From positions 96,462-160,461 of the forward strand of contig JBGAIQ010000009.1 of the NCBI GenBank assembly GCA_044225365.1: 64,000 nt of DNA, in the 5' to 3' direction. Position numbers and translations under genes: made by a program. This DNA is from Planctomycetota bacterium (GTDB lineage Bacteria > Planctomycetota > B15-G4 > JADJEK01). The notes under the pieces were generated by a model. It saw only the letters and a list, made by a program, of their open reading frames with translations, did not search any database and had not been told where the DNA came from. This document shows, piece by piece, positions 953 through 47,677 of the stretch (position 1 is its first letter; every line of letters begins with the position of its first letter).

Positions 953-1771
953 TCAGTGTCCTTGCTTCGTCCGAGTGTGTCGGCACTCGCAAGGGCTCTC
1001 GGCCATGTCGAGGAACCCCGCCAAACGGTCCGCATGTTCCTTGATGTCGTTCATTGCCTTCTGCATCGTCGGATGCTCGATGGATGTCGCAGGAATCGGT
1101 TTACCGTCTCGGCCGGGCGCTGTCGGTCCGGTCAAGGAATAACCATCTCCAATGACGGTGACCCGGGTCAGCTTTGGATCCGATGTATCCGGCACGTCGT
1201 GCGTCGGCTGACTCAGCATTCCATTGTGGACGACATCCGCCCACAGCATGATCGTGACGCTGCCGAACTGGTACTGATTCCAGATCTCGTTGATGATTCG
1301 CTTCCTCTGCAGTTCCCATTTCTCCTTCGCGTCGACATACGCCGCCATCGAATCATGCGTCATGAACGACTTGATTCCAGCGAGCGAGTTGAGCGCGTTT
1401 TGTAGGAAACGCTCCACGAAGGAGTACAAGAGCACGGCGTGGACCATTTCGTGGAAGTAGGCGGACTCCGTGATTCCTTTTCCAACCACTCTCAGCGTCT
1501 TATCAGGAGCCATGACGCTGGAATTCAGGGCTGCGATCTGCACCTTGATGCTGAAATCGGAATCTCCCGAGTGGGAGGTCCTCGCGTGATCCGTCTCGGC
1601 CGGATAGCACGGCGGATCCATCACGGGATTCACGTAGACGTACTTCTCGGAGTAGATGTCCACGCTGTCGAGCTCGGTGACGCCAAAGACCAGGCCTCCC
1701 AGCGCCTCCGAGAAGGCGACGCCAGCCAACTTCGGTCGCTGGATCTCACCGAGCACCCGACCGACCGTGCA
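953..1771 (-). other. C-terminal variable tip of the RHS protein: 272-aa putative zinc-metallopeptidase (HExxH) toxin domain
   Basis: This is the sequence after DPSGL. HEMVH is encoded at 1439-1453 (checked by reverse complement: CAC GAA ATG GTC CAC). Local GC drops: hand counts give 32/60 G+C for lines 1441-1500 and 1501-1560, against 41/60 for 3001-3060 in the repeat core. Confidence 0.6.
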
Positions 1772-25829: not shown

Positions 25830-27032
25830 CTACTTCTGGAAGATCGGCAAGTACTGCTGCGGCATGAGGAGGATGAGGCACGCGGACGCCGTGGAATAGA
25901 CTCGACCGTAGTCGCTCTCACCGATCGAGCCCTTCGGATCCTGGCTCTCCGCGAACTCGTCGACGATCGCCGTCTGCCACGCGCGGAACAGACTGGGATC
26001 ACGGTACAGGTAGTAGGCCTCTGCCGCATAGAGCCGCGCGTAGAAGGGATGAGTATCGCCGAGAGTGCGCAGGCTGGGATTCAGAACCGGATCCTTGATC
26101 TGCATGTACTCGATGCCGCGGTCGATCACGTCGCTGGCATAGTCGCCCGTGGCGTTGAGGGTCGCGATGGCGGCAGCCGTGAGTCCGTAACTCACCTGCT
26201 CCTTCATCATCTTGCTGTAGCAGAAGGCCCCGCTCGGCCGCTGGAGCTCCCTCACGTACTTCACGGCGTCGTCGATGCATTGCTTGTTGACGTAGATTCC
26301 GACGTCGCGTGCCGCTCGCAGGGCCTGGATCATCGTGATGGTGACCGACCCCTCGTGCTCGGCGTCTCCGGGCTCGTAATACCAGCCGCCATCCTTCGTC
26401 TGCGACCATTCGATGAGCTGGACGGCGTCGACGAGGATCCGGCGCAGCTCGGCCATCTCGCCGCGCACGCGCTTCACCGAGCCGTCCCCGTAGGCATCGT
26501 CGATGCGGTAGGTGCCATAGGCCTCGGCGAGGGCGAGGGTCGCGTACCCGTGGCCGTGCATCTTCGACGTCCCGTCACCGGGGAACGAGAAGTAGATGTG
26601 GTTGACGTCGATGTCCTCGGCCTTGTCCTCACCCAGAATCCGATGCGCGGTGAACGTCGTGGCGTTGCCGCACTTCATGAGGAACTGGATCGCCTTCTGC
26701 ACGTTCTCGCGATACGGCCCGCGGCCGAGCGTCGAGCCACCCGCCATGAACGCGAGCGCACTGAGGGCGGTCACGGCGACGGGAGCCGACGTCACTCCGG
26801 TATCGGACTTCGCCTTGTTGAACTGACCATCCTCGGCCTGTTGCTTCGCGAGCCACTCGAGCCCGCGCTGGCCGATCTCGAACGCGCGATCCTCGACCTC
26901 GCGCGTGGCGTGCTGGGAATTCCCGTCCGATCCGAAACCGGCGCCGCTCGGGCGGCACATCGCCTTCGCCGCGACGAGGATTGCCGCGACAGCGAGGACA
27001 GTGCTTACCGGGATGGCGCGGGCCGGGATCAT
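25830..27032 (-). CDS. prenyltransferase/squalene-cyclase-like alpha/alpha-toroid (QW-repeat) protein, paralogue 2
   Basis: The N-terminus is hydrophobic. QW-type motifs are LAKQQAEDGQF, WSQTKDGGWYYEP and ELQRPSGAFCY. It ends QQYLPIFQK, like the paralogue at 32941-34092. The start overlaps the upstream stop by 1 nt. Confidence 0.65.
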   Translation of the reverse strand: MIPARAIPVSTVLAVAAILVAAKAMCRPSGAGFGSDGNSQHATREVEDRAFEIGQRGLEWLAKQQAEDGQFNKAKSDTGVTSAPVAVTALSALAFMAGGSTLGRGPYRENVQKAIQFLMKCGNATTFTAHRILGEDKAEDIDVNHIYFSFPGDGTSKMHGHGYATLALAEAYGTYRIDDAYGDGSVKRVRGEMAELRRILVDAVQLIEWSQTKDGGWYYEPGDAEHEGSVTITMIQALRAARDVGIYVNKQCIDDAVKYVRELQRPSGAFCYSKMMKEQVSYGLTAAAIATLNATGDYASDVIDRGIEYMQIKDPVLNPSLRTLGDTHPFYARLYAAEAYYLYRDPSLFRAWQTAIVDEFAESQDPKGSIGESDYGRVYSTASACLILLMPQQYLPIFQK

Positions 27033-27742
27033 CAGGGCTGCTTGCTCTTGTTCCGCGTCCGGTAGTACTGCAACAGGAGCTCTCGATAGCGGTCCGGGAA
27101 CTCGTTCTGCGAGAGCTTCTGGAACATCTCCTGGACCTTCGGCGGCAGGACGCCCCAGCGGCCGGCGACGTTCTCGCGCTGGTACTTCTCCTTCTCCGAC
27201 GGCGGATCGACGCCATCCGCCTTCTGCTGATCCGGCTTGCTCTTGTCCGGCCCACCATCCTTCGGCTGGCCCGATTTCTCCTCGGGCTTCTGCTTGCCCT
27301 CGCCCTTGTCCTTCTCGCCTTGCTGCTTCAGCTTGTCGACCTCGGGATCCTTGCCCCGCTCGTCCTGCTGTTTCTGCTGGGGAGAGTTCTTGGGATCGGG
27401 CTCGCCCGACCCCTTGCCGCCGCTGTTGGACTGCCGCTTCGCCATGCGGACGAGTTCCTCGATGTCCGTCACGGCCTGCGACTGCTTGGATTGGATGTCC
27501 TTCAGCAGCTTGTCGAGATCGGCTTTCACCTGCTCGATCCTCGCGGCGGCATCCTTGGGCGCATCCTTCGCAGCCTGCAACAGCAGCTCGTCGATCTCGC
27601 CCATCTCCTTACGGATCTTGGCTTGGAGCTCCTTCGCCTTGATCTCGTCGGCTTGTCCCCCGTCCTGCGCGACCGCGCGCTGCGCGCTCACGCCCGTGAG
27701 GATCGCCGCGACGCAGAGGAATCGCTGGATGCGCGTGTTCAT
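27032..27742 (-). CDS. secreted Lys/Gln/Glu-rich protein with conserved-looking C-terminal WGxLPP...YRELLLQYYR motif
   Basis: MNTRIQRFLCVAAILTGVSAQRAVAQ is signal-like. The middle is low-complexity KQ-rich. The C-terminus reads RWGVLPPKVQEMFQKLSQNEFPDRYRELLLQYYR. An ATGA overlap links it to the upstream gene. Confidence 0.6.
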   Translation of the reverse strand: MNTRIQRFLCVAAILTGVSAQRAVAQDGGQADEIKAKELQAKIRKEMGEIDELLLQAAKDAPKDAAARIEQVKADLDKLLKDIQSKQSQAVTDIEELVRMAKRQSNSGGKGSGEPDPKNSPQQKQQDERGKDPEVDKLKQQGEKDKGEGKQKPEEKSGQPKDGGPDKSKPDQQKADGVDPPSEKEKYQRENVAGRWGVLPPKVQEMFQKLSQNEFPDRYRELLLQYYRTRNKSKQP

Positions 27743-30525
27743 TTGCCACCCGGGCCCTTCTCGTCCTTCACTTCGACCGGCGGCCCCTGCGAGTCGTCGA
27801 TCATGCCGCGGAAGAGTTTCGTGATCTCGGAGTGCTGTAGTCCGAGGCGGGTCAGGCGGTCACGCGAAATCGCGTCGAGACCACCCTCCGCATTGGCGCC
27901 CTGGAGCCGCATGAAGACGTCGAGACGCTTCATCATGCTCTCCTCCATTCGCTTCAACATGAGCAACTCGGCGACGGGCGGGATCAAGGGCTGCTTCTGT
28001 TGCTGCTGCGGCGAATTCCCGTTCTGGCCGTCCGGCGGCTGGCCCTCCTCGCCCTCCTTCGGCTTGAGCTTCGCCTGCTTGCGGCGCTCGACTTCTTCAT
28101 CGAGGGTCGCGAGAAGCGTGTCGTAGCGATCGAGGATGTCGCGCGCGATCGACTGCGTGAAGTCGTCGGTGCGGTAGGGAGCGGTCCCGAGCAGTTCGGT
28201 CACTCGATCGAAATCGCCGTCGTTCTGCTCGAGCGCGAACGTGAAGACCGTCGCTCCATCCTCGCGCAGCTTCGACACGACCTCCTGATTCTGCACCTTC
28301 AGTTCTCGCGACTTCTGCGCGAGCTTCTTCGACGTATTCTGTCCGACTCGCGACAGCTTGCCCTTGCTCTGGCGCTCGAGTTCGAGCTCCTCGGTCTTGG
28401 CTACGACCTCACCCTGGCCCGTACGAAGGAGGGTCAACTGCTCCTTCACCTTGAAGAGCAACTCCTCCTGGCGAAGGTTCTGGTACTTGTCCTTCTCCTG
28501 CTTCAGTTCCTGCTCGGCCTTCTTCAAGAACTTCTCGGCTTCTTCCTGGCGCGGGGTTGCTTCCTCGCCCTGCTCCTTCTTGAGGCTCGATGCCGCCTGA
28601 TCCATCTTCGATGCGGCGGCGGAGAGCGACTGCTCGCGTTCGGGCTTCTTCTCGTCGCGGATACGATCCATCAGCTCTTTCAGCTTCTTCTCGAGCTCCC
28701 GCTGACGGCTCTCGAGGTCGTCGTACTTCTGCTGCTGATCCGCGGCCGAAGGGGAGTCCTTCGCGGACTGCTCGGCTTCCGACTGCTGCTGGTCGAGCTC
28801 CTGCGAGGCCTTCTCGAGTTGTTCACCCGCCTCGCTCTGGCTCTTCGCTGCTTTCTCCTGCTGGCCGCTGCGCATCGATTGCGCCGCCTGCTGCATCGAC
28901 TGCGCCGCCGACTCCACGGCCTTCGAGGCTCCCGACGGCGAATCCTTCTTCATGGCCGCGTCGAGGCGGGAGAGCGTCTTCGCGAGAGCCTCGGCCTGCT
29001 GGCTCGCGTACTCCTGCTTCGCGGCGAGGGAGTCGCTCCGTTCCTGCGCAGCCTTCTCGGCACCGTCGATCGCGTTGCGCGCCTCCTTCATCTTCTCGAG
29101 CGCATCGCGTTGCGCCGCGGCCGCGCCTTCGAGGTCGGGCTTCTCCATCTCGGAACCGGCTTCGTTCGCCGCTTGCGCGCTCTGCTCGAGCGCCGCCGCC
29201 GCGTCGCTCGCTCGCTTCTGCGCCGCTTGGTTTCGTTCGGCGGCCTGCGGATCGCCCGCACTCTTCGAATCGCGTGAGTCCTGCGTCGGCAACTTCTCCA
29301 CCCGGGAAGCAGCTTCTGCGAGCTTCTTCGCTTCGTCACCGAGTTCGCGTTGCTGGTCGGCCGCCTTCGCGTCGGTCGCCGACTTCGAGAGCGCCTTGTC
29401 GAGCTGCGCCTTCGCGGCATCGACGTTCTCGTTCTCGGCGTTCGCGAGCTGCGCCGCCGTGGACGCGTCGCCGTTCTTCTCGGCGTCGCGCGCCGCCTTC
29501 ATCCGCTCCGAAGCACTCGCGAGTGCTTTGGCGAGGGCTTCGCGGGCGGTTGCGATCTCGGCGGCGTTCGCCGGATCCTTCGCGCCGTTCTCGCCGTTCT
29601 TTGCGTCGGCCGCGGTCGCCTCCTGTGACAACGCGTCCTTCGCCGCCGCGAGTTGTTCGGCAACCTTCTTCATCGCGTCGGCGTCGCCCGCGGCCTTCGA
29701 GTCGTCAGATGCGTCGGCCTTGGACTTCGGGGAGCCGTCGGCGGAGGCTGCCTCGGCCTTCTTGGCAAGGTCCTTCGCGAGAGCCTTCTGGGCTTCGATC
29801 GCGGCCTGTGCAGCGAGGAATCCGGGAGCCGCCCGCTCGAGCGAGTTCTCGGTCGCTGCGAGCGCGGCATTCTGCTTCGCGATCAGGTTCTCCAACTGGT
29901 GCTTCAGAGCGGCGAGTGCCGAGTCCTTCGACTGCGACTCGCTCGTGTTCTCCTTCGCCAGCTTCTGTTCGTTCTCCTTCAGGTCCTTCAACTGACTCTT
30001 CGCCTGCTCGGCGAGAGCCTTCGGATTCGTCGCCAGAACGGTCGTCTCGTTCGTCAGCTTCTGCTGCTCGCTCCGCACCTGCGCAATGTCGCGGACCGCT
30101 TGTTCGAGCTTCTTGGCTTCGGCGTCGAGCGAATCGAAGTCCGTTCGATCGAGGAGGATCGCGTACACGGACTCGAGATCCTTGAGCAGGTCCTCCTGCT
30201 CCTTCACCGAGGCGAACTCCTGGCGGTCGAGACTCGACCCGATCTTCTCGATCGTTCGGGTCAGCTCGCGCTTCTTGATCTCGGCGATCGCATTGTCGAG
30301 CAGGTCGGCGCTGTGCTGCTTTCCCTCCGCCCGCAGCCGCTTCGACAGCGACTCCATGTTCTTCTTCGTCGACTCGATGCGGCTCTTGAGGTTCTGCTGC
30401 TCCTGCGAGATGCGTTTGACGTCGGTCGCGGCGTCGGTCTCATCGCTCGCCCACGAGCGTGCGAACGGCAGTGCACAGAGCGACAGCGAGAGGAGACACG
30501 GAGCGAAGTGGAATCGGCTTCTCAT
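27739..30525 (-). CDS. 928-aa secreted Ala/Lys/Glu/Gln-rich coiled-coil protein
   Basis: Start MRSRFHFAPCLLSLSLCALPFARSWA at 30525 (CAT at 30523-30525). Nearly the entire length has heptad-like AKE/Q-rich composition. The C-terminus has LIPPVAELLMLKRMEESMMKRLDVF. Confidence 0.65.
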   Translation of the reverse strand: MRSRFHFAPCLLSLSLCALPFARSWASDETDAATDVKRISQEQQNLKSRIESTKKNMESLSKRLRAEGKQHSADLLDNAIAEIKKRELTRTIEKIGSSLDRQEFASVKEQEDLLKDLESVYAILLDRTDFDSLDAEAKKLEQAVRDIAQVRSEQQKLTNETTVLATNPKALAEQAKSQLKDLKENEQKLAKENTSESQSKDSALAALKHQLENLIAKQNAALAATENSLERAAPGFLAAQAAIEAQKALAKDLAKKAEAASADGSPKSKADASDDSKAAGDADAMKKVAEQLAAAKDALSQEATAADAKNGENGAKDPANAAEIATAREALAKALASASERMKAARDAEKNGDASTAAQLANAENENVDAAKAQLDKALSKSATDAKAADQQRELGDEAKKLAEAASRVEKLPTQDSRDSKSAGDPQAAERNQAAQKRASDAAAALEQSAQAANEAGSEMEKPDLEGAAAAQRDALEKMKEARNAIDGAEKAAQERSDSLAAKQEYASQQAEALAKTLSRLDAAMKKDSPSGASKAVESAAQSMQQAAQSMRSGQQEKAAKSQSEAGEQLEKASQELDQQQSEAEQSAKDSPSAADQQQKYDDLESRQRELEKKLKELMDRIRDEKKPEREQSLSAAASKMDQAASSLKKEQGEEATPRQEEAEKFLKKAEQELKQEKDKYQNLRQEELLFKVKEQLTLLRTGQGEVVAKTEELELERQSKGKLSRVGQNTSKKLAQKSRELKVQNQEVVSKLREDGATVFTFALEQNDGDFDRVTELLGTAPYRTDDFTQSIARDILDRYDTLLATLDEEVERRKQAKLKPKEGEEGQPPDGQNGNSPQQQQKQPLIPPVAELLMLKRMEESMMKRLDVFMRLQGANAEGGLDAISRDRLTRLGLQHSEITKLFRGMIDDSQGPPVEVKDEKGPGGK

Positions 30526-30569
30526 GGTGTGCCTTACGACCGATTGCGCGCGGCGGGGTTCCATCGTTG

Positions 30570-32906
30570 TCATTCTCTCTTCAGCGACTGCTTGGTGCGC
30601 TGATTGAGCGACCGTTGATCCTCGACCAGATTGCGAAACGTCGCAACGATCTCTTGAAAACTCTCCCACTCATCGAGGCGGGCGATCAAGGCGTCGAGCC
30701 GTTCGAGCGCCCGTTTCTCCTCCTCGAGGGCTTGCCGCAAGGCCAAGGGCCGCTGCGCAGGATCGACGGCGAGCCGTGCATCGGACAGCGCTTTCGCGGC
30801 CGCCGGCGAATGCAGCTCGGCGACGTCGATCACGCAATGGATCATCTCGAAGATGCGACCGAGGATCTCGAGTCGACCGTACGCACTCGCGGCGTTCGCT
30901 TCGACGAGCGGTCGCCACAGCTTCGGATCGAACCCGTCCAATTGGGAGCTGCCGCGCTTCTTCTCGAGCATCACCGCGATCAATCCTTCGACGCCCGAAC
31001 TCGTGTCGAGCCGATTGAAGAGGTACTCCTCGAAGATCTCCGCGAACTCTCGGCACTGCTTCAGCGACCGTGCGGTCACCTGGTTCTGGCCCACCTCGAG
31101 CGTGGCGACGTCATCGGCCGTCGCGCCGGTCACCCCTTCGGCCTGGTCGAACTCCTTCAGGATCACTTCGAGTCGCTCGATCTTCTCCTGCTGGAGAGCG
31201 CGCAAGGAGCCGACCTCCTCCTTGGTGCGAGTCTGACGCTCCGCCAGGAGTCGCTGTTTCTCGCCGGGCGCGACGATGTCGACGCGCCGCTCCTCGATCG
31301 CCGTCTCGTTGCCGCCGGTCGAGGGCTTGCCGTCCTTGCCAAGGACGATGCCGTCGAAATTGTCCTTGGCCGCGACGCGATAGACGAGCGACTCCCCCGC
31401 CGCCATCGCGCGCGGCCCGCCTTCGTGCTCGAACACCTTCTGCTTGAGGTCGAGGTGCTCGTAGACGAGGACGCGACGCGATTCGTCCGGACCCTTGCCG
31501 ATCGGGAAGTCGATCTTCAGCGGGGTCGCACCGCCAAACGGCTTCATCTCGATCGCGAGGCTCGTGAGTCCGTAATCGTCGTCGGCGGCGATCCGCAACG
31601 GAACGATGCCGTTCGGTGTCACGTCGACGTCGGCGCGGCCGGGCTCGAGGACTCGCACGGTCGGACCGCGATCCTTGACGGCGAGGACCGAGTAGGTCGG
31701 GGGTTCGAGATTCTTGAACCCGATGTCCGAGACCAGCTCGATGGAATAGGCGCACGACTGCGTGATGTCGAACGACGCTCGCAGCTTCCGCGAATTCGAA
31801 TCGGCGACGAGTAGAAGCGGCAGTGCCGCGATCCCGCTGTCGAAGACGAGGCGACCGGCGGCCACCGCATCGGCGGTCTGGACGTCGATCGTGACGTGTG
31901 TCCCGACGAGTCCTTCCACGTCGCCTCGTGGTTCGACCCGCGGTCCGAGACCGGTGTAGGCCGGGAACTGGAGCTGCGACGTGACGCTCGCGACCGCGGG
32001 CGGCGTGAAGATCTCGACTTCGACTTCGCGGCCGCCGCCATCATCGTCGCCGCCGACCGGTCGGAACGTGAAGGGCGCGCGCACCGATCGGAACCGGCCC
32101 GCCCACTCACCATTGCCCGTCGACGACAGGGCGATCTTCGAATCCCCGCTCTCGCGCGACTCGGTCCGGACCTCGACGAGCTCGGGGTTCTCGCCGTTCG
32201 CCGTCACTGCGACCGGCAGACTCGCGCCACGAGCGATGCGGACGCGAATCGGGCGCTTCTCGTTCGAGGAGTCCTTCGCGTCGTATTCCACGACGTAGTG
32301 CGTGCCGTGCTCGGGGAACTTCACCGCGAGCATCGTGCGTTGCGGCCATCGTGCGCTCCCGCCGAGTAGGCGGCGGAAGAAGACGTCGGCGAGCGACGAC
32401 TGCGTCGCCACGAACGTGATGACGCCGAGGACGAGCACGGCCGCCGCCGCGCCGAGGCGCTGCAGGTGCCGATACTCGAAGATCGTCGAAAGGGGCAGGG
32501 TGGCCCGGATCGCCGAAGTCTCGCGCCGCAAGTCGGCGACGAGCTCGGGCGACACGTTGCGCTGCGGATCGATCGCCTCGCCCTCGAGTTCGAGGACCGC
32601 GAGCAGACGGCCGTCGAACTGCGGGAAGCGCCGCTCGATCGCACACGCGACATCGCGCTCGGTCGGCCGCTTCTTCAGGGGGTAGACGATGCCGCGATAT
32701 ACCTGCACGGCGAGGCCGGCGACGACGACGAGCAGCAGCACGATGCGAACCGGCGCGGGCAGGGCGAGCGACCGATCGAGGACGTAGAGGGCGGCGAGCC
32801 CGCAGCATACGAAGGCGACGACGCGCGCGATTCCATACAGCAGCGCGAGCTTGAGCCAGCGGCCCGCGAGACGCGAGAATTCGGCGCGCAGTTCGTTCAG
32901 GTCCAT
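30570..32906 (-). CDS. 778-aa membrane protein (N-terminal TM hairpins, large ectodomain, C-terminal helical region); DUF4175-like by recollection
   Basis: Hydrophobic segments are WLKLALLYGIARVVAFVCCGLAALYVL, VRIVLLLVVVAGLAVQVY and LGAAAAVLVLGVITFVAT. A beta-rich middle and a helical C-terminus follow. The family name comes from memory of similar architectures and was not searched. Confidence 0.55.
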   Translation of the reverse strand: MDLNELRAEFSRLAGRWLKLALLYGIARVVAFVCCGLAALYVLDRSLALPAPVRIVLLLVVVAGLAVQVYRGIVYPLKKRPTERDVACAIERRFPQFDGRLLAVLELEGEAIDPQRNVSPELVADLRRETSAIRATLPLSTIFEYRHLQRLGAAAAVLVLGVITFVATQSSLADVFFRRLLGGSARWPQRTMLAVKFPEHGTHYVVEYDAKDSSNEKRPIRVRIARGASLPVAVTANGENPELVEVRTESRESGDSKIALSSTGNGEWAGRFRSVRAPFTFRPVGGDDDGGGREVEVEIFTPPAVASVTSQLQFPAYTGLGPRVEPRGDVEGLVGTHVTIDVQTADAVAAGRLVFDSGIAALPLLLVADSNSRKLRASFDITQSCAYSIELVSDIGFKNLEPPTYSVLAVKDRGPTVRVLEPGRADVDVTPNGIVPLRIAADDDYGLTSLAIEMKPFGGATPLKIDFPIGKGPDESRRVLVYEHLDLKQKVFEHEGGPRAMAAGESLVYRVAAKDNFDGIVLGKDGKPSTGGNETAIEERRVDIVAPGEKQRLLAERQTRTKEEVGSLRALQQEKIERLEVILKEFDQAEGVTGATADDVATLEVGQNQVTARSLKQCREFAEIFEEYLFNRLDTSSGVEGLIAVMLEKKRGSSQLDGFDPKLWRPLVEANAASAYGRLEILGRIFEMIHCVIDVAELHSPAAAKALSDARLAVDPAQRPLALRQALEEEKRALERLDALIARLDEWESFQEIVATFRNLVEDQRSLNQRTKQSLKRE

Positions 32907-32940
32907 CGGTTGATCGGGTCCGTCTCGTGGTCCATCGGGC

Positions 32941-34092
32941 TCAGCGCTGCAGGATCGGCAAGTACCGGTAAGGGACCTGCAGGATGATCGACGCTACGGC
33001 GGTCGAGAAGGCGTCGCCGGGACCCTCCTTGTTGCGCCAGAAACCGTCGCGCGTCTGCACGTTCAACAGGTCCGCCTTGATGCTTTTATAGTACCGACTC
33101 CACCACGGGTCGCCCGCGACAAAGAACGCCTGCACCGCGTAGTAGTGGCCGTACCAGAAGAAGAAGTGTTCGTAGCGACTCCGCATCTGGTCGTACTCGC
33201 GCTCGAGGAGATCGAGCGACTCGCGAAGGGTTTCGTTCGAGTACACGCCTGCGTTGTAGAGCGATGCGATCCCCGCCGCCGTGAGCGCGAACGAACTGCG
33301 CGTGTTGTCCTGCTTCTGATACTTGAACGAGCCGCGCTTCAAGAAGTAGTAGTCGTTCGAGTCGCCGTATCCCGCGTAGGGGTCGTCCTCCGGCTGATAG
33401 GAGTCGATGACGTACTTCACGGCGTTGTCGATCGTGGTCTTCGGGACCTTGATCCCGATGTTGCGAGCCGAGCGCAGCGCCATGATCTGGCAGACCGTGA
33501 TCGACATGTCGGACTCGATCGCGAACGGCTCGTAGCGCCACGAACCGTAGCTGTTCTGCGATTCGACGATGAGGTCGACGGCGCGCTGCAGTTTCTCGCG
33601 CAGGTCGTTGCGATGCGTCATCCCGACGACTTCGGACAGGAAGAGCGTCGCGAACGCGTGGCTGTACATGCGCGTTCCGTCGCGCGAGATGTAACCGTGC
33701 TCGTCGACCGAGGTGAGGATGAAGTCGATCGCCTTCGTCAGCGTCTCGCCGTAGCGGCCGCGACCCGGCAGATTGCCGCCCGCGAGGTACGCCATGCCCG
33801 CGAGCGCCGTCACCCCGACGTGATGGACCTTCTCGTGCTCGACCATGTAACTCTGATTCAGCTTGAAGCCGACATCCCCGGTCCACGAGCCGTCGGCGTT
33901 CTGCTGCTTCTGGAGCCAGCGCAGCGCCTTGTCGACCGCGGTCGCCACCGCGGGATCGGGATCATCGGCACCCACGTTCGAATCGTCGCTCGCAGTGACG
34001 GGGACGGGTGCGATGGGCGACACCCCGAACGACACGAGCGGCGCGAGGAGGACGAAGCCCACGCCGAGTCCGAGCGACCGAAACATTCTCAT
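32941..34092 (-). CDS. prenyltransferase/squalene-cyclase-like alpha/alpha-toroid (QW-repeat) protein, paralogue 1
   Basis: Start MRMFRSLGLGVGFVLLAPLVSFG at 34092 (or 34086). QW-type motifs are LQKQQNADGSWTGD, ESQNSYGSWRYEP and NVQTRDGFWRNK. It ends YRYLPILQR. Confidence 0.65.
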   Translation of the reverse strand: MRMFRSLGLGVGFVLLAPLVSFGVSPIAPVPVTASDDSNVGADDPDPAVATAVDKALRWLQKQQNADGSWTGDVGFKLNQSYMVEHEKVHHVGVTALAGMAYLAGGNLPGRGRYGETLTKAIDFILTSVDEHGYISRDGTRMYSHAFATLFLSEVVGMTHRNDLREKLQRAVDLIVESQNSYGSWRYEPFAIESDMSITVCQIMALRSARNIGIKVPKTTIDNAVKYVIDSYQPEDDPYAGYGDSNDYYFLKRGSFKYQKQDNTRSSFALTAAGIASLYNAGVYSNETLRESLDLLEREYDQMRSRYEHFFFWYGHYYAVQAFFVAGDPWWSRYYKSIKADLLNVQTRDGFWRNKEGPGDAFSTAVASIILQVPYRYLPILQR

Positions 34093-34145
34093 GGATTCGA
34101 TTCCTTCAAGCGTTCGCGCGGGGTCCATCGACTTTCCTTTGCCGC

Positions 34146-37100
34146 TCACTTCGAAGTCTCGTAGACGGCGAGAGCCGTTCCGGACAGGACCGCGAAGTGG
34201 CGCGGGGTTGCAACGCTCTGCACCGGCGCGCGTTCCGAGGTCAGCGGGATCTCGACCGCGGCGAACGTGCCGGCATCGGGCGCGAACGTGAATAGGTACG
34301 TGCGCCGGGGATTGCCCGACGCACGCCGGATCTCCGCGAGACCGTAGACGTCACCGGTTCGGGTGAGCGACGCGCGGAACGTCGGACTCCCGGGGGGCAG
34401 GGCCGTCATGTCGACCGTTCGTTCGATCGCTTTCTTGTCGAGGTCGATCACGACGAGGCGATCCCGCTTCGCCGCTCCCGACCCCGTGCCCGCGCCGACG
34501 AGCACGAAGCGGCGCTTGGACGTGCCGCTTCCCGTGTCGAAGGCTCGCAGGTTCTCGAGGCCCATGACACACTGTTCGACCGTTCCCGTCCGCGGCTCAA
34601 GTCGGCTGACCGAAACGATCCCGCGCGGGGATCGCGTGTAGGTCGGCGAGGTTCCCTTGGGCAACAGGAATCCGTTCGTGGTCGGAACGAGCCACTCGAA
34701 CGACATCGGGAACGGCACTTCCTTCACGTAGGCGAGCGGCCGACCGTCCTCGAGGTCGAACGACGCGAGCGACTTCGTCTCGGCGTTCTCGCGACCGAGC
34801 GTCAACACGACGCCGAACTCCTCGTAAGCGCGCGCTTCGAACCGCTTGTTCATCGCGAGGTTCGAGATCGCGAAACGCTTCACGCCCGTGAGCGCATCGA
34901 GCGACACGACCGTCGGCTGCTCGCTCGCGCCGATCGCCAGCACGGCATCGCGGACGGCTTGGATTTCGAGGCACTCGAAATCGAGCGGCGTCGACCACAG
35001 CACCATGCCGGTCGCGGTCTCGACGGCGACGATCATCGAAGCGCCTTGCGTCGGTGGCGTGAGCAGCGCGAAGATCAGGCTGCCCGCGGAATCGACCGCC
35101 CCCACCGAGGCCCCGGAACTCCCGGCGAGGCTCGTATCGAAGCGGGTGATACCGCTCTTCTTGTCGATCCCGAACAGCCGATCCCGCTGCCGAAAGACGA
35201 TGCGATCTCCGATCGAGAACGCTCGCAGCGGGTCGAGGTCCGACGCATAGGCCGGCACGCGAACGTGCCAGATCTCCGACAACGTCGCGAGGTCGATGCG
35301 ACGCAAGACGGCGTCGGGCGCTCCGAGTTGCTCCTCCTCGTACACCAGGATCGCATCCTCGGAGTCGAATTCGACGGGGACGAGCACGCTGCGCGTCACC
35401 TGGAGTTCGAGCGTCTTCGCCGCAGGATCGGGGAGTCGCTCGAGGCGCGCCCTCTCCGCGACCGCGGCCGGCTCGGCCCCGAGGGCTTCGAGATCACGGG
35501 TTGCGACGCTGCGCACGTCCGAGGCCGGCTCGACGACGCTCGCGGCCGCCGAACCCGTCGCGACGATGCGCTTCAGCATGAGGCGAGCGAGCGCGGAATC
35601 GCCAGCGAGCGCGGCGCCGCGCGCAGCGAGGAGGAGAGCGTTCTGCCGATCGCCGTCGTCGTTCGCGGAAGTGAGCAGCGGCGCGACGACGCGGAACACC
35701 TCGGAGTACTCCTTGCGTTCGAGGCGGATCATCGCGAGGTCGAGACGCGCCCGCGGCGCCGCGGCGGCGTTCGGGAATCGCATCACGATCTCGAGGAGGG
35801 CCGCCGCATTGCGCGACGCGCTCGCCGCGCTGCGGGCGTCGCTCGCGGCGGCGTCGAATTCGGCGTAGATCGATCGGCCGTACTTTGCGATGGCATCCGC
35901 GATGAGTCGCTCGGCGTGCTTGCCCGCAGTTCCACCCGGGAAAGGGGTGTCGCGATACAGATCGATGATCCGCTGCCAACTCGAAACCGCCGCCTTGGCG
36001 TCGCGGCGGCCGAGCGCATACACGGCGCGCCGATCGAGGGTGTAGAGACCCGCGGGGATCGGAGTGCCGTAGGCGTTCGCCGCGAAGGCGTACTGCGCAT
36101 TCGGACAGCGCTCGTCGATCCAGTCGAGGACCGCCGGGATCCGCGAAGGATCCGCAGCCTCGAGCGAGTGGATCAACTGTTCGCAGGCGCGGAGGAAGTC
36201 GGCGTCGTCGAGGGAATGCTCCGCCTCCGCGAATCGGTGCTGCGCGGCCACCGCTGCGAGCCCGGACTTGTCGGCGCGTTCTGCGAGTTGATGATGCGCC
36301 ACCGCGAGTCGCTCGTGTGCGCGACGAACCAGGCTCGCATCGGTCGCGGGGGACGAGATCGATGGATCGGCCAGTACGCCCTCGAACTCCGTGATCGCAC
36401 GCTCGACGTTACCGCGCAGTGCCAGCAACTCTCCGAGATCGACGTGATCGGCGAGCGTGCCCTTGCCGCTGCCGATCCGCGTCTCGACGCGCTGGATCAG
36501 GTTCTCGAGATCGTAGAACACCGTCATCTGGCTCGCGGAGACGACGATCTGGAAGTCGCGATGCACCAGGAGATTCCCGGGCAATCCCGCCGAGTCCGAG
36601 AAACCCCAGTCGAGCGTGCGATCGCGCAGATCCATTCCCGCCTTGGTCCGCTGGTACCGCAATTCGAGCAGGCCTTCGGCGAGCGGTTGGAAGAGGACAC
36701 CGTCGCCGAGGCAGCCGCGGCCCGCGTACGACCGCGCCTGGCGGAAGCGATAGGCCCCGAGGAGTCGACCGTTGCGAAGATCGTGGAAACCGATCCCGCT
36801 CGGCCCGGAGAAGATCACGGCCCCCTGATCCACACCGAGCACGGTGCAGTAGTCGAAGGGATGGTTCTTGTCCTGATTGCACTCGACCGACCAGAGGATC
36901 TTGCCCGTCGACGCCTCGTACGCGTAGGCCGAATCCGAGTCGAGCGGAGTGACGATGCAGACTCCCTCGCGCACGATGGCCGGATCGTTGATCCAGAACC
37001 GCGGCCGCTCGAAGGTGCGTCGATAGTGACGCGTCGCCTTGATGGGAATCGCTTCGTACTGCGCGAGCCAGCGAGGATTGCCGGTGAGACCGTCGAGGCA

Positions 37101-38780
37101 GCCGGAGAGCCCGAGATTCGTCGACAGGAAGATCGAGCCGTCCTTCTCCGCGACCATCTGGGTCGTGAATTCCTTGAACGGCTTGTTGAACATCGTCAGC
37201 TCCTGCTGACCGATGACGAGCGGCGTCTTCCACAGGAGCGAGCCGTCCTGCAGCGAGAGGCACATCGCGTAGACGTTGATCGCGCCCTCGAGCAGCGAAC
37301 CCGTCACGTAGATCCGATCCCCCACCGCGACGGGCGCCGAGAGGATCGAGACACGATTGATGAAATCGTGGAGCGGGCGATCATCGCGCCGCATGCGCCA
37401 CAGCAGCCTGCCGTTCTCGACGTCGACCGCGTAGAGCCCGCGCCGCGGAACGGTCTGGGTGATGCGCGTCTGATCGAACTCCACGTCCCGGCCGTGGGGC
37501 GCGGGTTCGAGGAGGGCGCCGAGAACCACGTGATCGGAGATCGTCGCGACGAGCGGCAAGGAGCGGGCCAGGGTCCCGAAATCGTTGTCCATTCCGGGCA
37601 TCGGGCTGTCCCAGAGCAGACTGTTGAAGTCGTAGAGCTGGGGCGCGACGGAGCCCGAGAGCGGCCCGATGTACTTCCACTTCGGCGTGGCCGAGTAGAA
37701 CGACCAGGCGCGGATCGAGAGACCATCGCAGAGGACGATGACATCGGAGGCGACGACCGGATGGAACGGACTCGATTCCCGGATCTCGCGAACCCGACGC
37801 CACGGATTCTCGTCACCACTGAAGGAGTCCGTCGTCCAGCGCGACGCGAACGTCAGCGCCTCGGGATCGAACTGGACGAGTCCATCGTGGGCGCCATTGC
37901 CGCCGACCACCGGCCACGCGGCGTCCCTCGGGGGCATCATCGAGCCGAACTCCGGCAGGATCCCACGGGCTTTCGCCGGCGAGCCGGAGACCGTGACGGA
38001 GGGATCGCCGAATCGCTCGATCCAGCGCGACGCCGGCGAGTCCGAACGGCCGAACGCCGCCGACGCGGCCGCGAGGAATGCATCCCCGGATGCCTTCTCC
38101 GCTGTGCTCGATACGGATTCGAATGCCAGCTTGCGGCCGTAGAAACGCTCGGATGCTTCGAAATCACCGCGCTCGAGGGCGAGGCGACCGAGACGATCGA
38201 GCGCGCGTTGCCCTTCGGGAGTGAGTTCCCAGAAGCGCACGAACTCGATCAGCTTCGAAGGATCCTGGGTCTCGGCGATCGCCCGCCAGAGCGACTCGGA
38301 TCGCAGGCGAGCGAACTCGGTGTAGGCGGCGCGACCCTCGGCCGGGAACGACGCGATGAGGTACTTTGCGTACTCCGCGGCCCCGACGTAGCGCGGCGGG
38401 TCGTTCGCCACTTGGTAGACGTGTGTCGGGTAGAGAGTGATCAACTCCTGGAGCGAGTCACACGCGACGCGGTATTCGCCGCGCCGCATCGCATCGCGCG
38501 CCGACTCGAACAGCACGCGGACCCGCGCCGTCGTCTGCACCGCGAACGTCGCGACGGCGCTGTGATCCGGGTCGTACTTGAAGTTCGGGTCCTGGATCGA
38601 CTCCCATCCGCCGAACGGCAAGAACGGTTCGTCCTGGGCCCGCAGGACCGAAGTCGTCAGGAGGCCAACGACGACCGCGGCCACCGCCGCGCCGGAGGCA
38701 GTGGAGATGCGAGCGGCCGGAACGGCGGCCGTTGCTCGCGGCGCGCCCTCGTCCGTGCGGTGTTTCGAAGCGAGCTTCAC
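34146..38780 (-). CDS. 1544-aa secreted TPR + PQQ-like beta-propeller repeat protein
   Basis: GTG start at 38780. The N-terminus has a hydrophobic segment AAVAAVVVGLLTTSVLRAQ. Propeller-type repeats include GRLLWRMRR, DGSLLWKTPL, GKILWSVE and GMVLWSTPL. TPR-like helical blocks sit between them. Confidence 0.65.
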   Translation of the reverse strand: MKLASKHRTDEGAPRATAAVPAARISTASGAAVAAVVVGLLTTSVLRAQDEPFLPFGGWESIQDPNFKYDPDHSAVATFAVQTTARVRVLFESARDAMRRGEYRVACDSLQELITLYPTHVYQVANDPPRYVGAAEYAKYLIASFPAEGRAAYTEFARLRSESLWRAIAETQDPSKLIEFVRFWELTPEGQRALDRLGRLALERGDFEASERFYGRKLAFESVSSTAEKASGDAFLAAASAAFGRSDSPASRWIERFGDPSVTVSGSPAKARGILPEFGSMMPPRDAAWPVVGGNGAHDGLVQFDPEALTFASRWTTDSFSGDENPWRRVREIRESSPFHPVVASDVIVLCDGLSIRAWSFYSATPKWKYIGPLSGSVAPQLYDFNSLLWDSPMPGMDNDFGTLARSLPLVATISDHVVLGALLEPAPHGRDVEFDQTRITQTVPRRGLYAVDVENGRLLWRMRRDDRPLHDFINRVSILSAPVAVGDRIYVTGSLLEGAINVYAMCLSLQDGSLLWKTPLVIGQQELTMFNKPFKEFTTQMVAEKDGSIFLSTNLGLSGCLDGLTGNPRWLAQYEAIPIKATRHYRRTFERPRFWINDPAIVREGVCIVTPLDSDSAYAYEASTGKILWSVECNQDKNHPFDYCTVLGVDQGAVIFSGPSGIGFHDLRNGRLLGAYRFRQARSYAGRGCLGDGVLFQPLAEGLLELRYQRTKAGMDLRDRTLDWGFSDSAGLPGNLLVHRDFQIVVSASQMTVFYDLENLIQRVETRIGSGKGTLADHVDLGELLALRGNVERAITEFEGVLADPSISSPATDASLVRRAHERLAVAHHQLAERADKSGLAAVAAQHRFAEAEHSLDDADFLRACEQLIHSLEAADPSRIPAVLDWIDERCPNAQYAFAANAYGTPIPAGLYTLDRRAVYALGRRDAKAAVSSWQRIIDLYRDTPFPGGTAGKHAERLIADAIAKYGRSIYAEFDAAASDARSAASASRNAAALLEIVMRFPNAAAAPRARLDLAMIRLERKEYSEVFRVVAPLLTSANDDGDRQNALLLAARGAALAGDSALARLMLKRIVATGSAAASVVEPASDVRSVATRDLEALGAEPAAVAERARLERLPDPAAKTLELQVTRSVLVPVEFDSEDAILVYEEEQLGAPDAVLRRIDLATLSEIWHVRVPAYASDLDPLRAFSIGDRIVFRQRDRLFGIDKKSGITRFDTSLAGSSGASVGAVDSAGSLIFALLTPPTQGASMIVAVETATGMVLWSTPLDFECLEIQAVRDAVLAIGASEQPTVVSLDALTGVKRFAISNLAMNKRFEARAYEEFGVVLTLGRENAETKSLASFDLEDGRPLAYVKEVPFPMSFEWLVPTTNGFLLPKGTSPTYTRSPRGIVSVSRLEPRTGTVEQCVMGLENLRAFDTGSGTSKRRFVLVGAGTGSGAAKRDRLVVIDLDKKAIERTVDMTALPPGSPTFRASLTRTGDVYGLAEIRRASGNPRRTYLFTFAPDAGTFAAVEIPLTSERAPVQSVATPRHFAVLSGTALAVYETSK

Positions 38781-38951: not shown

Positions 38952-40907
38952 TCAGTGCGGGTGGGAGACCTGGGAATCGTCGCTCGGACCGCGCGCCAGC
39001 TTCTCGAGCCGCAGGCGATAGGTACGAAGGATCTGCTCGCGTGACAGCAGCCCAATCAATTTCCAGCGATCGCCATCGGGAACCACGATCGGTACCTCGT
39101 CGCACTCCTCCTCGGAGAGCTTCTGGAGGGCCGTGAGCAGCGGGTCGTCCGGGCGGACGATCGGGTAGGCATCGCTCATCATCTCCGAGACCAGGACGAG
39201 TCGGTGGACGCTGGTGTCGAGCAAGAGGTCGCGAACGTCCTCGATCGTGACGATGCCGAGCACGAATCCGGCTTCGTCGAGCACCGGAAAGCACTGCTGC
39301 CGCGTCCGTCGCAGCATCTGGACCATGTCGGCGATCGTCTGACCCGGCTTCAGTGTCGCAACCTTCGAATGTTGAGCCGTGGCGTTCTCGACGGTGAGTG
39401 GCGCGAGCACGTCGACGCTGTACGAACCGAGGTGTGCCGGCGACTCGAAGCGCGATCCAACCTGGGCCGTGTAGACCGACGCGCGACCGGTGAACACGTA
39501 GGCGAGCGCGCAGACCAGCACGAGCGGCAGGAGCAGTCCGTACGAGCCGGTGATCTCGCACACCATGACGAGTCCCGCGATCGGCACCTTGGTGATACCG
39601 GCGAACACACCGCTCATGCCGACCAGGACGTAGGCCCCCGGATCGGTGACGACGTCGGGGAACAGGAGATGCGCGAGCTGTCCGTAGCCCGCACCCACCA
39701 TCGCGCCGATGTAGAACGCAGGGCCGAACACGCCTTCACCCCCGCGCGTCGCGAAGGTGATGCCCGTCGCGAGCGATTTGGCGAGCGCGAGTCCGAGCAG
39801 GAAGAGCACGCCGCGCATTCCGGGGCCCGCGAGGCTGCCATCGATCGCTTGCTGCACCCAGCCGTAGCCGGTGCCCCACACCTCTGGAACCGCGAGAACG
39901 AGCACGCCGAGGAGGAGCCCGCCGATCGCCGGCCGAGCGAACGACGGCAGCGTGAAGCGCGCGAAGATCTTGTCGAAGACGCCCACGCGCAGCGTTTTCA
40001 GCGCCATGACGTAGACGATGCCGGCGAGCGCGCAAACGAGTCCGAAGACAGCGTAGATCGGCAGCTCGAGCGGCGACATCAGTTTGAACGCCGTCGCATG
40101 GAAGACCGGTGTCCAGCCGTAGACACAACCGAAGGTCGCGTACGCCGAGAGCGACCCGATGATCGCGGGTACGAACGCCGTGTACTCGAACTCCGGATTG
40201 CGATACGGCGACTCGATGGCGAAGATCGCGCCCGAGAGCGGTGCGCGGAAGATCGCCGCGAACCCGGCCGCCGCGCCGACGAGTAGCGAGATCCGCCGAT
40301 CCGCAGAGCGCAGCTTGAACGTATCGGCGATCTTCGAACCGATCGCCGCTCCGAGTCCGACCGCCGGCCCTTCGCGACCGACCGACCCACCGGAGCCGAT
40401 GACGACGAGCGAACTGAGCGCTCGCAGGACTGGATCCTTCAATCCGAATTTCCCGCGTCGCTGATGGAACGCATCGAGCACGCCGTCGGTTCCGCCGCGG
40501 GTGGGATCGGGCCGTGCGATCGTGAAGAGCAGGCCCGCGAGGAGTCCACCGAGGCCGGGCACCAGGACGAGCATCCAGCGAATCGGTTCCGCGACCGCGC
40601 TGCCCGTGGGCTCGGGCGGATCGCCGCCGGGCACCGGCGGATGGAACGACGCGAGGCGATGCGTGAAGAACGCGACCGCGAGCCGCAGCGCCTCGAAGAA
40701 CACGATCGACACCGCGCCCGCGAGGACACCGATCAGCACCGCGAGGAAGAACCACTTCGCCGCGTGGCGGATGTCGGGCAGCGACGTGAACGAGGCCGGA
40801 CGCGACGCGTCCCGGCCGACAGGATGGAACGGCGCGATACGAGTCGTCGCGCTCGCCGCCGGATCGGGCCGTTTCAGATCAGATTGAATCTCTTGCGTAG
40901 GATCCAC
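38952..40907 (-). CDS. ClC-family chloride channel/antiporter with C-terminal CBS pair
   Basis: Motifs are GSGGSVGREGP and GFAAIFRAPLSGAIFAIE, with about 10 hydrophobic helices. The C-terminal CBS region includes TIADMVQML...CFPVLDE and MMSDAYPIVRP...VPIVV. The start is uncertain. The only in-frame ATG/GTG/TTG before the first helix and near the upstream stop is GTG at 40907, giving a 34-nt overlap. Confidence 0.85.
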   Translation of the reverse strand: MDPTQEIQSDLKRPDPAASATTRIAPFHPVGRDASRPASFTSLPDIRHAAKWFFLAVLIGVLAGAVSIVFFEALRLAVAFFTHRLASFHPPVPGGDPPEPTGSAVAEPIRWMLVLVPGLGGLLAGLLFTIARPDPTRGGTDGVLDAFHQRRGKFGLKDPVLRALSSLVVIGSGGSVGREGPAVGLGAAIGSKIADTFKLRSADRRISLLVGAAAGFAAIFRAPLSGAIFAIESPYRNPEFEYTAFVPAIIGSLSAYATFGCVYGWTPVFHATAFKLMSPLELPIYAVFGLVCALAGIVYVMALKTLRVGVFDKIFARFTLPSFARPAIGGLLLGVLVLAVPEVWGTGYGWVQQAIDGSLAGPGMRGVLFLLGLALAKSLATGITFATRGGEGVFGPAFYIGAMVGAGYGQLAHLLFPDVVTDPGAYVLVGMSGVFAGITKVPIAGLVMVCEITGSYGLLLPLVLVCALAYVFTGRASVYTAQVGSRFESPAHLGSYSVDVLAPLTVENATAQHSKVATLKPGQTIADMVQMLRRTRQQCFPVLDEAGFVLGIVTIEDVRDLLLDTSVHRLVLVSEMMSDAYPIVRPDDPLLTALQKLSEEECDEVPIVVPDGDRWKLIGLLSREQILRTYRLRLEKLARGPSDDSQVSHPH

Positions 40908-45648: not shown

Positions 45649-46562
45649 CGCCGCGAACCTCGCCGTTCGCGCAGCGCGAGGTACGAAGTGAGTGCGACGT
45701 CGAGCGGCGTGTCGGTGAGGAGCACGCGGAAGTCGACTCCGTTGTTGAGACAGCCCTTCTTCAACTTGGCCTGATGCGCGTTGAAGACCTCAAGGTACGC
45801 GGCGCGCAGGGCCTGAGGATCGGCGATCAGGTCGCCCATCCCCTCGAGGCCCTCGAACTTCATCATGCGGTCGAACGCGAAGTCGACTTCGTCACGATCG
45901 AGCACCTGGAAGACCATGACGTCTTGCCGCTTGGTCTTGAGGGCGCGGATCCCCGCGAGCACTTTCTCGGGCGGCGCGAAGAAGTCCGAGATGACGGCGA
46001 CGATCGATCGCGGCGGGAGTCGCGTAGCGAGTTCACGCAGTGCGAGCCCAGGGTCGGTCTTCTTCACGAGCTTCACGCGCTCGATCGCGTCCGTGATCTT
46101 GAGCAGGTGCGAGGGCCGCGTCGCCGCGGGAACCCATTTGTCGACGTCCTCGCTCGTGAGCGCGAGCGCGGCGGCATCGCGGTGATCGAGGACGAGGAAC
46201 GACAAGGTCGCCGCGACGAATGCGCCGTAACGGAACTTGCTGACCCGATCGACGCCCGCGTAGCTCATGGACTCCGAGCAGTCGAGGACGATCGACAGCG
46301 TGAGGTTCGTCTCTTCCTCGTAGCGCTTGATGTAGTAGCGATCGGATCGTCCGAAGATCCGCCAGTCGAGATGGCGCAGGTCGTCGCCGGGCACGTATTC
46401 GCGATGCTCCGCGAACTCGACGGAGGCCCCGCGATGCGGGCTCTTGTGCATCCCGGCCATGAATCCTTCGACGGCCTGGCGCGCCTTCAGTTCGAGGCGC
46501 CCCAGCTTGTCGAGGACCTTAGGATCCAACCACTGGCGGTAGTCGTGTGTCGCTGAGGACAT
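45645..46562 (-). CDS. DUF58 family protein
   Basis: HRGASVEFAEHREYVPGDDLRHLDWRIFGRSDRYYIKRYEEETN is the DUF58 signature. It also has LDCSESM. Confidence 0.85.
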   Translation of the reverse strand: MSSATHDYRQWLDPKVLDKLGRLELKARQAVEGFMAGMHKSPHRGASVEFAEHREYVPGDDLRHLDWRIFGRSDRYYIKRYEEETNLTLSIVLDCSESMSYAGVDRVSKFRYGAFVAATLSFLVLDHRDAAALALTSEDVDKWVPAATRPSHLLKITDAIERVKLVKKTDPGLALRELATRLPPRSIVAVISDFFAPPEKVLAGIRALKTKRQDVMVFQVLDRDEVDFAFDRMMKFEGLEGMGDLIADPQALRAAYLEVFNAHQAKLKKGCLNNGVDFRVLLTDTPLDVALTSYLALRERRGSRR

Positions 46563-47562: not shown

Positions 47563-47677
47563 TGCGAAACTCCAGGTACGGCCGTGATTCCGCGGGACGT
47601 GAGGCCCCGCAGATCCAACCATCTAGGATACGATCGGCAAACGAGAGGCGAGAGACGAAATCGTTCGTGAGATCTCG

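Follow-up and report, generated by a model that had tools for sequence, protein, structure and literature searches.

TorA and TorB, two single-domain (alpha/alpha)6 toroid proteins with predicted export signals, are encoded by conserved accessory genes within a large MoxR/von Willebrand/DUF4175 cell-envelope operon in a deep lineage of the Planctomycetota, and belong to a very large, already annotated protein family. The explanation favoured here, which is held with as much doubt as confidence, is that they are an ancient exported pair serving as non-catalytic periplasmic binding subunits of an elaborated Bat-like system. All coordinates are positions within the 64,000 nt stretch of DNA analysed, referred to as the window.

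Both open reading frames named in a preliminary description of this DNA exist, on the minus strand. TorA (25830-27032) starts at an ATG, encodes 400 aa and is the last conserved gene of the operon. TorB (32941-34149) is 383 to 402 aa long, depending on which of three candidate starts is chosen: a GTG at 34149, which overlaps the stop codon of the upstream gene as GTGA; an ATG at 34128, giving the 395 aa protein recorded at NCBI; or an ATG at 34092, giving the 383 aa form described previously. QW-type motifs are found in TorA (QQAEDGQF and QTKDGGW) and in TorB (QQNADGSW, QTRDGFW and GSWRY), and the two proteins score 33.1 and 41.8 bits against Pfam SQHop_cyclase_C (PF13243), both above the gathering cut-off of 26.1. 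An N-terminal hydrophobic segment, judged from hydropathy to be a signal peptide, is present in both and in 111/120 and 113/120 of their homologues (224/240 overall), while a lipobox occurs in merely 1/120 and 2/120. These signals support the export of both toroids that had been claimed earlier, and suggest the periplasm as their probable location.

The operon, also encoded entirely on the minus strand, includes a MoxR-type AAA+ ATPase containing AAA_3 and AAA_lid_2 domains (46519-47622; 211.8 bits), followed by a DUF58 protein (45645-46562; 134 bits), a BatA-type protein with an N-terminal double-TM domain and a VWA domain (43330-45648; 67.9 bits to TIGR02226) and a membrane protein (40874-43426) that combines VWA and GATase1-like domains with two predicted TM segments and matches MG2 weakly. 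A CLC chloride channel with CBS domains (38952-41192) interrupts the operon; this insertion was otherwise seen in the closest relative alone. Next come a secreted giant of 1544 aa with TPR and PQQ_2/BamB-like beta-propeller repeats (34146-38780), whose stop codon is the one overlapping the TorB GTG, and then TorB itself. TorB and TorA bracket three genes: 30570-32906 encodes a 778 aa membrane protein with approximately four predicted TM segments, 27739-30573 a secreted coiled-coil protein and 27032-27742 a 236 aa KQ-rich secreted protein with a signal peptide. The coiled-coil protein matches the C-terminal part of DUF4175 at 31.4 bits, against a cut-off of 27.3, and the membrane protein matches the N-terminal part at 26.2 bits, just below it. 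With DUF4175 counted, the components of a Bat-like operon core (MoxR AAA_3, DUF58, BatA N-terminal domain, VWA and DUF4175) are co-directional between 27739 and 47622. The KQ-rich protein was considered as a detached C-terminal end of DUF4175, an idea set aside because no Pfam family was matched, even at an E value of 10; its position is conserved in related loci.

The junctions between these genes are tight. The coiled-coil reading frame is open to 30669, with its likely start at the ATG at 30573 overlapping the upstream stop codon as ATGA, and the stop of the KQ-rich gene overlaps the TorA start by 1 nt; the set as a whole comprises one GTGA, two ATGA, the 1 nt overlap and a single gap of 34 nt. 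Conserved order and overlapping stop and start codons support co-expression of these genes, and perhaps co-assembly of their products, while carrying no information on geometry.

The level of conservation of this arrangement was studied in 80 species-level Planctomycetota genomes, including that of the cultured Rohdeia mirabilis (Pla163). The order DUF58, BatA, VWA, PQQ giant, TorB, membrane protein, coiled coil, KQ-rich protein and TorA is conserved across these loci: the membrane protein gene adjoins TorB in 70/70 loci, the giant lies upstream of TorB in 56/56, and TorA is present in 39 of the 42 loci of sufficient length. Six loci contain two TorB genes and one TorA. The recurrence of paired toroids around DUF4175-like genes, which the preliminary description had proposed surveying, is therefore observed, though it is lineage-specific. 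A reverse survey starting from DUF4175 was confined to three distant MoxR-DUF58-BatA-DUF4175 operons, two of them from Gemmatimonadota-type loci, because the word-indexed search for homologues of the membrane protein reached just 31 proteins; none of the three contained a toroid gene detectable at an HMM E value below 0.01. Judged by these three loci, the toroids are lineage-specific additions rather than a general component of Bat-like operons.

Structure prediction supports the (alpha/alpha)6 toroid fold originally suggested for both proteins, each comprising one toroid of about 330 residues after the N-terminal hydrophobic segment. Their paralogy, likewise proposed at the outset, is borne out by an end-to-end alignment at 31% identity (E = 1e-42) and a profile-profile match with an E value of 3e-84; no third copy is present in the window. 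Mean identity is 62% within TorB and 48% within TorA, as against 35% between them, placing the two in separate clades. Because toroid pairs are widespread around DUF4175-like genes, a recent tandem duplication can be ruled out; the pair is ancient.

A further feature of the pair is their nearly identical C-terminal ending. The heptapeptides YLPIFQK of TorA (25833-25853) and YLPILQR of TorB (32944-32964) directly precede the stop codons, such that the proteins end in PQQYLPIFQK and PYRYLPILQR. The ending is indeed present in both, yet it is not special to the pair: a C-terminus of the form LP-x-(F/L/Y/H/V)-(Q/E/R/H/A)-(R/K), with leucine and proline invariant, closes 240/240 close homologues, and related endings such as LEVYYRYLPMY terminate toroid domains across a superfamily that numbers 17,000 clusters or more. 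Such a distribution marks a hallmark of the end of the domain, and the peptide common to TorA and TorB is inherited rather than the product of chance. The tail is modelled with a pLDDT of about 92-93 in both proteins, and would most likely fold back onto the toroid as a latch.

Free-standing members of the family also occur outside such operons, so that the family is not confined to Bat-like systems. TorB-like toroids also form the C-terminal domains of BlaR1/Peptidase_M56 proteins, one of which has an overlapping BlaI gene upstream, and of ECF sigma factor fusions, while a Ser/Thr kinase carries two copies in its C-terminal part. These fused toroids score 250-300 bits against the TorB profile, and the hairpin motif GYKF..Y.V....H.GVTAL specific to TorB is also found in the M56 fusions. 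In these signalling proteins the toroid domains are presumably extracytoplasmic and sensory; a non-catalytic periplasmic binding role is therefore the most likely one for TorA and TorB.

Both proteins are members of the superfamily of squalene cyclases, prenyltransferases and TED domains that lack the catalytic motifs of all three, these having been lost or never present. In the proposed explanation, each would bind a ligand or a partner protein in a polar, conserved pocket formed where its six inner helices begin at their N-termini. In TorB the invariant polar residues H91, R141/Y143/H145, D195/S197, R265 and Y314/Y317/Y318 (383 aa numbering) fall where the six predicted inner helices start; C201, Q202 and R207 are invariant as well. 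Both pocket and latch were placed from sequence position and secondary structure. The operon to which the toroids belong elaborates, in a lineage-specific way, the widespread MoxR-DUF58-BatA-VWA-DUF4175 envelope system. In this Saltatorellus-type lineage of Planctomycetota, DUF4175 is divided between a membrane anchor and an extended secreted coiled coil, and three kinds of accessory gene have joined: the beta-propeller giant, TorB ahead of the anchor and TorA behind the KQ-rich protein.

The same conservation would also fit an enzyme. TorB is the slowest-evolving gene of the operon, with a median identity of 52% against 25-38% for the others, and many of its invariant residues are His, Asp, Arg or Tyr. 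TorB, and perhaps TorA, might then be a periplasmic hydrolase, epimerase, lyase or aldolase-like enzyme whose pocket acts on peptidoglycan, on a glycan of the envelope or on the polar head group of an isoprenoid. The clustering of dozens of invariant polar residues at the N-termini of inner helices, and the presence of AprG, an SHC-like toroid acting on sugars, among the top Foldseek matches, are in keeping with such an activity. However, identity to glycoside hydrolases and epimerases is just 6-15%, and sequence homology points instead to the cyclase superfamily; no known catalytic motif is conserved; several of the invariant TorB residues are lost in TorA; and the same type of domain recurs in the BlaR1, ECF sigma and kinase proteins. 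An enzymatic role is possible but rather unlikely.

In the preliminary description the bracketing was taken to suggest that the two toroids work at opposite ends of the rod-like proteins between them; TorB could, for instance, cap the membrane-anchor end and TorA the distal end with the coiled coil and KQ-rich protein. The conserved order of the five genes, the overlaps suggestive of translational coupling between the giant and TorB and between the KQ-rich protein and TorA, and the divergence of the two clades with different insertions, as would fit different partners, can all be accommodated. Nevertheless, gene order does not report geometry, and the six loci with two TorB genes and one TorA also count against this reading; the arrangement seems improbable as stated. 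It is a more specific version of the binding explanation and compatible with it.

A bolder extension of the binding role, and a slightly longer shot again, would have TorB and TorA recognise ligands at the head of a coiled-coil apparatus that is powered by MoxR, spans the periplasm and is peculiar to the Saltatorellus-type Planctomycetota, bacteria for which shape change has been reported. The ligand of TorB would be a conserved molecule of the envelope (isoprenoid lipid, glycan or muropeptide), and that of TorA would vary. Were this true, the operon would encode a trans-envelope tether, sensor or transporter of a new kind, with a receptor domain derived from cyclases.

It is very doubtful that the toroids are class II terpene cyclase-like or prenyltransferase-like enzymes with hopanoids, squalene, polyprenols or other isoprenoids of the envelope as substrates, even though their best structural and sequence matches are cyclases and the matches in the PDB include single-domain cyclases of similar size (8paj, 6sbb MstE and 6ij1). 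The DxDD motif is absent from both proteins and occurs anywhere in the sequence in only 5/120 TorA-type and 2/120 TorB-type homologues, DDxxD is not conserved among the toroid homologues, and D-x-C, resembling the zinc ligands of prenyltransferases, is found in just 21/120 and 5/120. DxDD and the two-domain body, both features of catalytic class II terpene cyclases, are missing from TorA and TorB. Against PF00432, the protein prenyltransferase beta subunit, TorA scores 25.7 bits, below the cut-off of 26.5, and TorB has no match; no gene resembling a prenyltransferase alpha subunit is present in the operon. Pfam also detects no isoprenoid-pathway gene in the operon, in agreement with the lack of isoprenoid context already remarked upon, and the export signals of the toroids further argue against this reading.

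Least credible is a thioester-domain-like mode, in which the toroids would bind covalently and, together with the MG2-like region of the VWA/GATase1 protein, make up a split adhesin or protease trap: the TED_complement (PF07678) match in TorA (16.7 bits, E = 0.004) falls below the cut-off of 22 and the MG2 match, on which a split alpha-2-macroglobulin was considered and rejected, below its own (22.8 against 32.8 bits), and although a distant superfamily member, P0261, does exceed the TED_complement cut-off at 48.9 bits, TED matches rank behind cyclases and glycosidases, a CGEQ-like motif is found in 0/240 homologues, and the CxxQ present in about half of the TorA family is rejected as a thioester because its cysteine occupies a buried helix position that T, C, A or L may fill.

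Literature searches turned up no account of these toroid proteins or their operon, and DUF4175 too is nearly absent from published work. Squalene-hopene and oxidosqualene cyclases and single-domain class II terpene cyclases (PF13243/PF13249; 1w6k, 1sqc, 8paj and 6sbb) share the fold, but TorA and TorB consist of one domain, as opposed to the two-domain (beta-gamma) cyclase body of about 630-730 aa, and do not conserve DxDD. SHC and OSC are cytoplasmic monotopic membrane enzymes in an isoprenoid biosynthesis context, whereas the toroids carry export signals and lie in an envelope operon. Thousands of Planctomycetota proteins labelled as 'terpene cyclase/mutase' or 'squalene cyclase' likewise have export signals and no cyclase acid motif, some of them being the C-terminal, presumably sensory, parts of BlaR1, ECF sigma and kinase proteins, and metabolic surveys would be mistaken to tally them as hopanoid or sterol cyclases. 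With the TED of alpha-2-macroglobulin and complement C3-C5 the differences are the absence of a thioester motif and of flanking MG and CUB domains, and TorA and TorB are structurally nearer to cyclases. The putative exported protein YPO2471 of Yersinia pestis (PDB 7TEM), for which no paper was found, shows no sequence relationship detectable in profile searches.

The BlaR1/M56, ECF sigma/anti-sigma and Ser/Thr kinase sensors contain the same domain family as TorB, but there a transducer is attached to the toroid, and the YLPIFQR tail is mostly lacking; by contrast, TorA and TorB stand alone as proteins, and no transcription factor is obvious in their operon. The closest parallel to the operon as a whole is with those of the Bat (Bacteroides aerotolerance) type, with which it has in common MoxR AAA_3, DUF58, a BatA double-TM protein, VWA, a GATase1-like domain and DUF4175. 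The MoxR-DUF58-BatA-vWA-DUF4175 system is present in many phyla. The toroid operon differs in that DUF4175 is split and the 1544 aa TPR/beta-propeller giant and two toroids are added. Hence this lineage has an expanded version of the Bat-like system, with two extra well-folded, highly conserved modules of a binding type, and the cultured carrier R. mirabilis Pla163 provides a concrete handle on the whole of it.

The two exported toroid paralogues, TorA and TorB, are an ancient pair tied to a conserved operon of approximately ten genes. In the window, which has a G+C content of about 65%, an unbroken run of minus strand genes extends from MoxR to TorA (25830-47622). The first gene encodes a MoxR AAA+ ATPase (AAA_3, 211.8 bits) and is followed by those for a DUF58 protein (134 bits), a BatA-type protein with an N-terminal double-TM domain and a VWA domain, another VWA-containing membrane protein that also has a GATase1-like domain, a CBS-domain CLC chloride channel (38952-41192), a secreted TPR/PQQ_2 beta-propeller protein of 1544 aa (the PQQ giant), TorB (32941-34149), a 778 aa TM protein with approximately four predicted TM segments, a secreted coiled-coil protein of around 945 aa, a secreted KQ-rich protein of 236 aa and, at the end of the run, TorA (25830-27032). 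The TM and coiled-coil proteins match the N-terminal and C-terminal parts of DUF4175, respectively. The PQQ giant and TorB genes share a GTGA overlap, ATGA overlaps are found at the coiled coil/KQ junction and, provided the coiled-coil start is the ATG at 30573, at the TM/coiled coil junction, and the KQ and TorA genes overlap by one base. The coordinates and features in the preliminary description therefore stand, with 34149, 34128 and 34092 as candidate starts of TorB. The CLC gene looks like a recent insertion, as it is present at only one of 80 related loci, L010, which is the closest of the relatives whose sequence reaches far enough upstream. The strong plus strand AT skew at 28001-30000 (-0.42) is accounted for by the coiled-coil gene, which lies on the minus strand and encodes a K/E/Q/A-rich protein. 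Elsewhere in the window, a minus strand gene for an RHS-repeat protein (953-4978; 1341 aa, 243 bits) adjoins an oppositely oriented ORF of 1384 aa, for which Pfam gave no match.

TorA and TorB align over their full length (31% identity, E = 1e-42), confirming the proposed paralogy, and their family profiles align with an E value of 3e-84; no third toroid copy was found in the window. Both contain QW-type motifs and score above Pfam's gathering cut-off for SQHop_cyclase_C. AlphaFold2 models of the two proteins, built from 78-sequence alignments, are confident (pLDDT 92.1, pTM 0.88 and pLDDT 89.2, pTM 0.86), and each comprises twelve main helices and one long beta-hairpin. The original structural reading as toroids was correct. 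The hairpins are confidently modelled in different inter-helix loops, at residues 122-148 in TorA and 71-90 in TorB (383 aa numbering), and that of TorB (GFKLNQ.Y.V....H) is nearly invariant. N-terminal hydrophobic segments are found in both proteins and in 224 of 240 homologues, among which a lipobox is almost absent; from these segments, it is reasonable to predict that TorA and TorB are exported or N-terminally anchored in the periplasm.

The conservation of this arrangement was studied by scanning one genome per GTDB species, which yielded more than 593 TorB relatives. The best 80 loci, onto which the window proteins were mapped, are all labelled Planctomycetota or unclassified bacteria, except for one short contig labelled Paracoccaceae. 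The order DUF58-BatA-VWA-PQQ giant-TorB-TM-coiled coil-KQ-TorA is near-universal, with the PQQ giant ahead of TorB at 56 of 56 loci and the TM protein directly after it at 70 of 70; gene calls on metagenomic contigs give the same pattern. The suggested recurrence of paired toroids around DUF4175-like genes is likewise observed, with a TorA-type gene downstream at 39 of the 42 loci whose sequence runs on for 9 kb or more in that direction. As the gene beyond TorA differs by locus (thioredoxin-like, Asn-synthase-like or FG-GAP), TorA is the conserved last gene. Six loci (L026, L029, L035, L039, L065 and L070) carry tandem TorB pairs and, where the contig is long enough, a TorA-type gene then follows, giving three toroids per operon. 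The TorA-type and TorB-type proteins form two clades, with mean identities of 48% within TorA, 62% within TorB and 35% between them; judged from these sequences, the duplication is old, and the pair is not a recent tandem duplicate. The complete operon is present in the cultured Rohdeia mirabilis Pla163 (L063, NZ_CP036290.1 2274781-2295863), a member of the Saltatorellus clade, whose bacteria are called shape-shifting in a study that makes no mention of these genes (bioRxiv 10.1101/817700). Literature searches also returned no description of the TorA and TorB proteins or their operon.

The shared C-terminal ending had been taken as a feature of the pair. It is indeed present on both proteins, and in the window and at 87 related loci it is confined to TorA and TorB genes, yet it is a family trait: the C-terminus reads ...P-(F/Y)-x-(Y/F)-L-P-(I)-(F/L)-Q-(R/K) in every one of the 240 close homologues, with the L and P invariant and the last residue always basic. 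Searching the TorB profile against 1.84 billion cluster representatives matched, at E <= 1e-3, at least 17,000 clusters, of which 3,529 reach E <= 1e-30, and the exact ending occurs in 69 of the best 150 matches, with close variants in many more. The toroids belong to a very large family that is already annotated, and mis-named. The toroid domain of large multidomain relatives closes with ...LEVYYRYLP(M/L)Y, after which the protein continues into further residues, and toroids in BlaR1-type fusions lack any tail; hence the tail is an end-of-domain element that is dispensable for the fold. It has a pLDDT of approximately 92-93 in the monomer models, and would pack back onto the toroid as a latch.

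The most informative functional evidence comes from fusions to signalling proteins. TorB-like toroids, with scores of 250-300 bits against the TorB profile, make up the C-terminal domain in BlaR1/Peptidase_M56 proteins, which retain the TorB hairpin motif and in one case (the P0380 contig) have an overlapping BlaI repressor gene upstream, and in ECF sigma-factor fusions, while two lie in the C-terminal part of a Ser/Thr kinase. Examples of these signalling fusions are P0380, P0313, P0359, P0268, P0353, P0373 and P0303. Other contexts include tandem copies and PD40-repeat giants. In signalling proteins of these types, the C-terminal position is that of an extracytoplasmic ligand-binding domain, and these fusions presumably represent an undescribed class of sensor domain. 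Furthermore, invariant His, Arg, Asp and Tyr residues cluster at the starts of six predicted inner helices, the canonical functional face in the toroid superfamily. The fusions and these residues, together with the export signals and the loss of all known catalytic motifs, suggest with about an even chance of being right that TorA and TorB would serve as binding rather than catalytic subunits of an assembly that the operon builds in the periplasm. The main alternative, an enzyme whose substrate would be a glycan, a muropeptide or the polar head group of a lipid, is consistent with the existence of sugar-active enzymes sharing the fold (e.g. AprG, GH76 and epimerases) and with the exceptional conservation of TorB, which evolves far more slowly than any other gene of the operon (its median identity to orthologues is 52%, compared with 25-38% for BatA, VWA, PQQ, TM, coiled coil, KQ and TorA), but appears unlikely given the same loss of motifs. 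The original proposal of one toroid at each end of a rod-like protein is a narrower form of the binding-subunit model, and is more doubtful still. Although TorA and TorB belong to the structural superfamily of cyclases, prenyltransferases and thioester domains, they are not assigned to any of these, because DxDD, CGEQ and DDxxD are absent from both and, like the prenyltransferase-type D-x-C, only sporadic across 120 + 120 homologues, and the CxxQ found in around half of the TorA family falls at a site occupied variously by T, C, A or L. The pair is real, ancient and tied to its operon, yet the family was already annotated, and the binding-subunit mechanism is at the stage of a proposal.

The association does not extend to all DUF4175 systems. 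Searching three distant MoxR-DUF58-BatA-DUF4175 operons (L089, L090 and L091), two of them from Gemmatimonadota-type loci, with both family HMMs identified no toroid gene. Unlike the operon in the window, in which DUF4175 is split in two, these encode it as one protein of 1,100-1,234 aa, lack the PQQ giant and start with a DUF4159 gene, ahead of which L090 and L091 have a Peptidase_MA_2/TPR gene. Conversely, a free-standing family member with a YLPIFQR ending (L088) is found in an unrelated gene neighbourhood. Hence the Bat-like core of the operon is older, and the toroids and the beta-propeller giant were added to it in this lineage.
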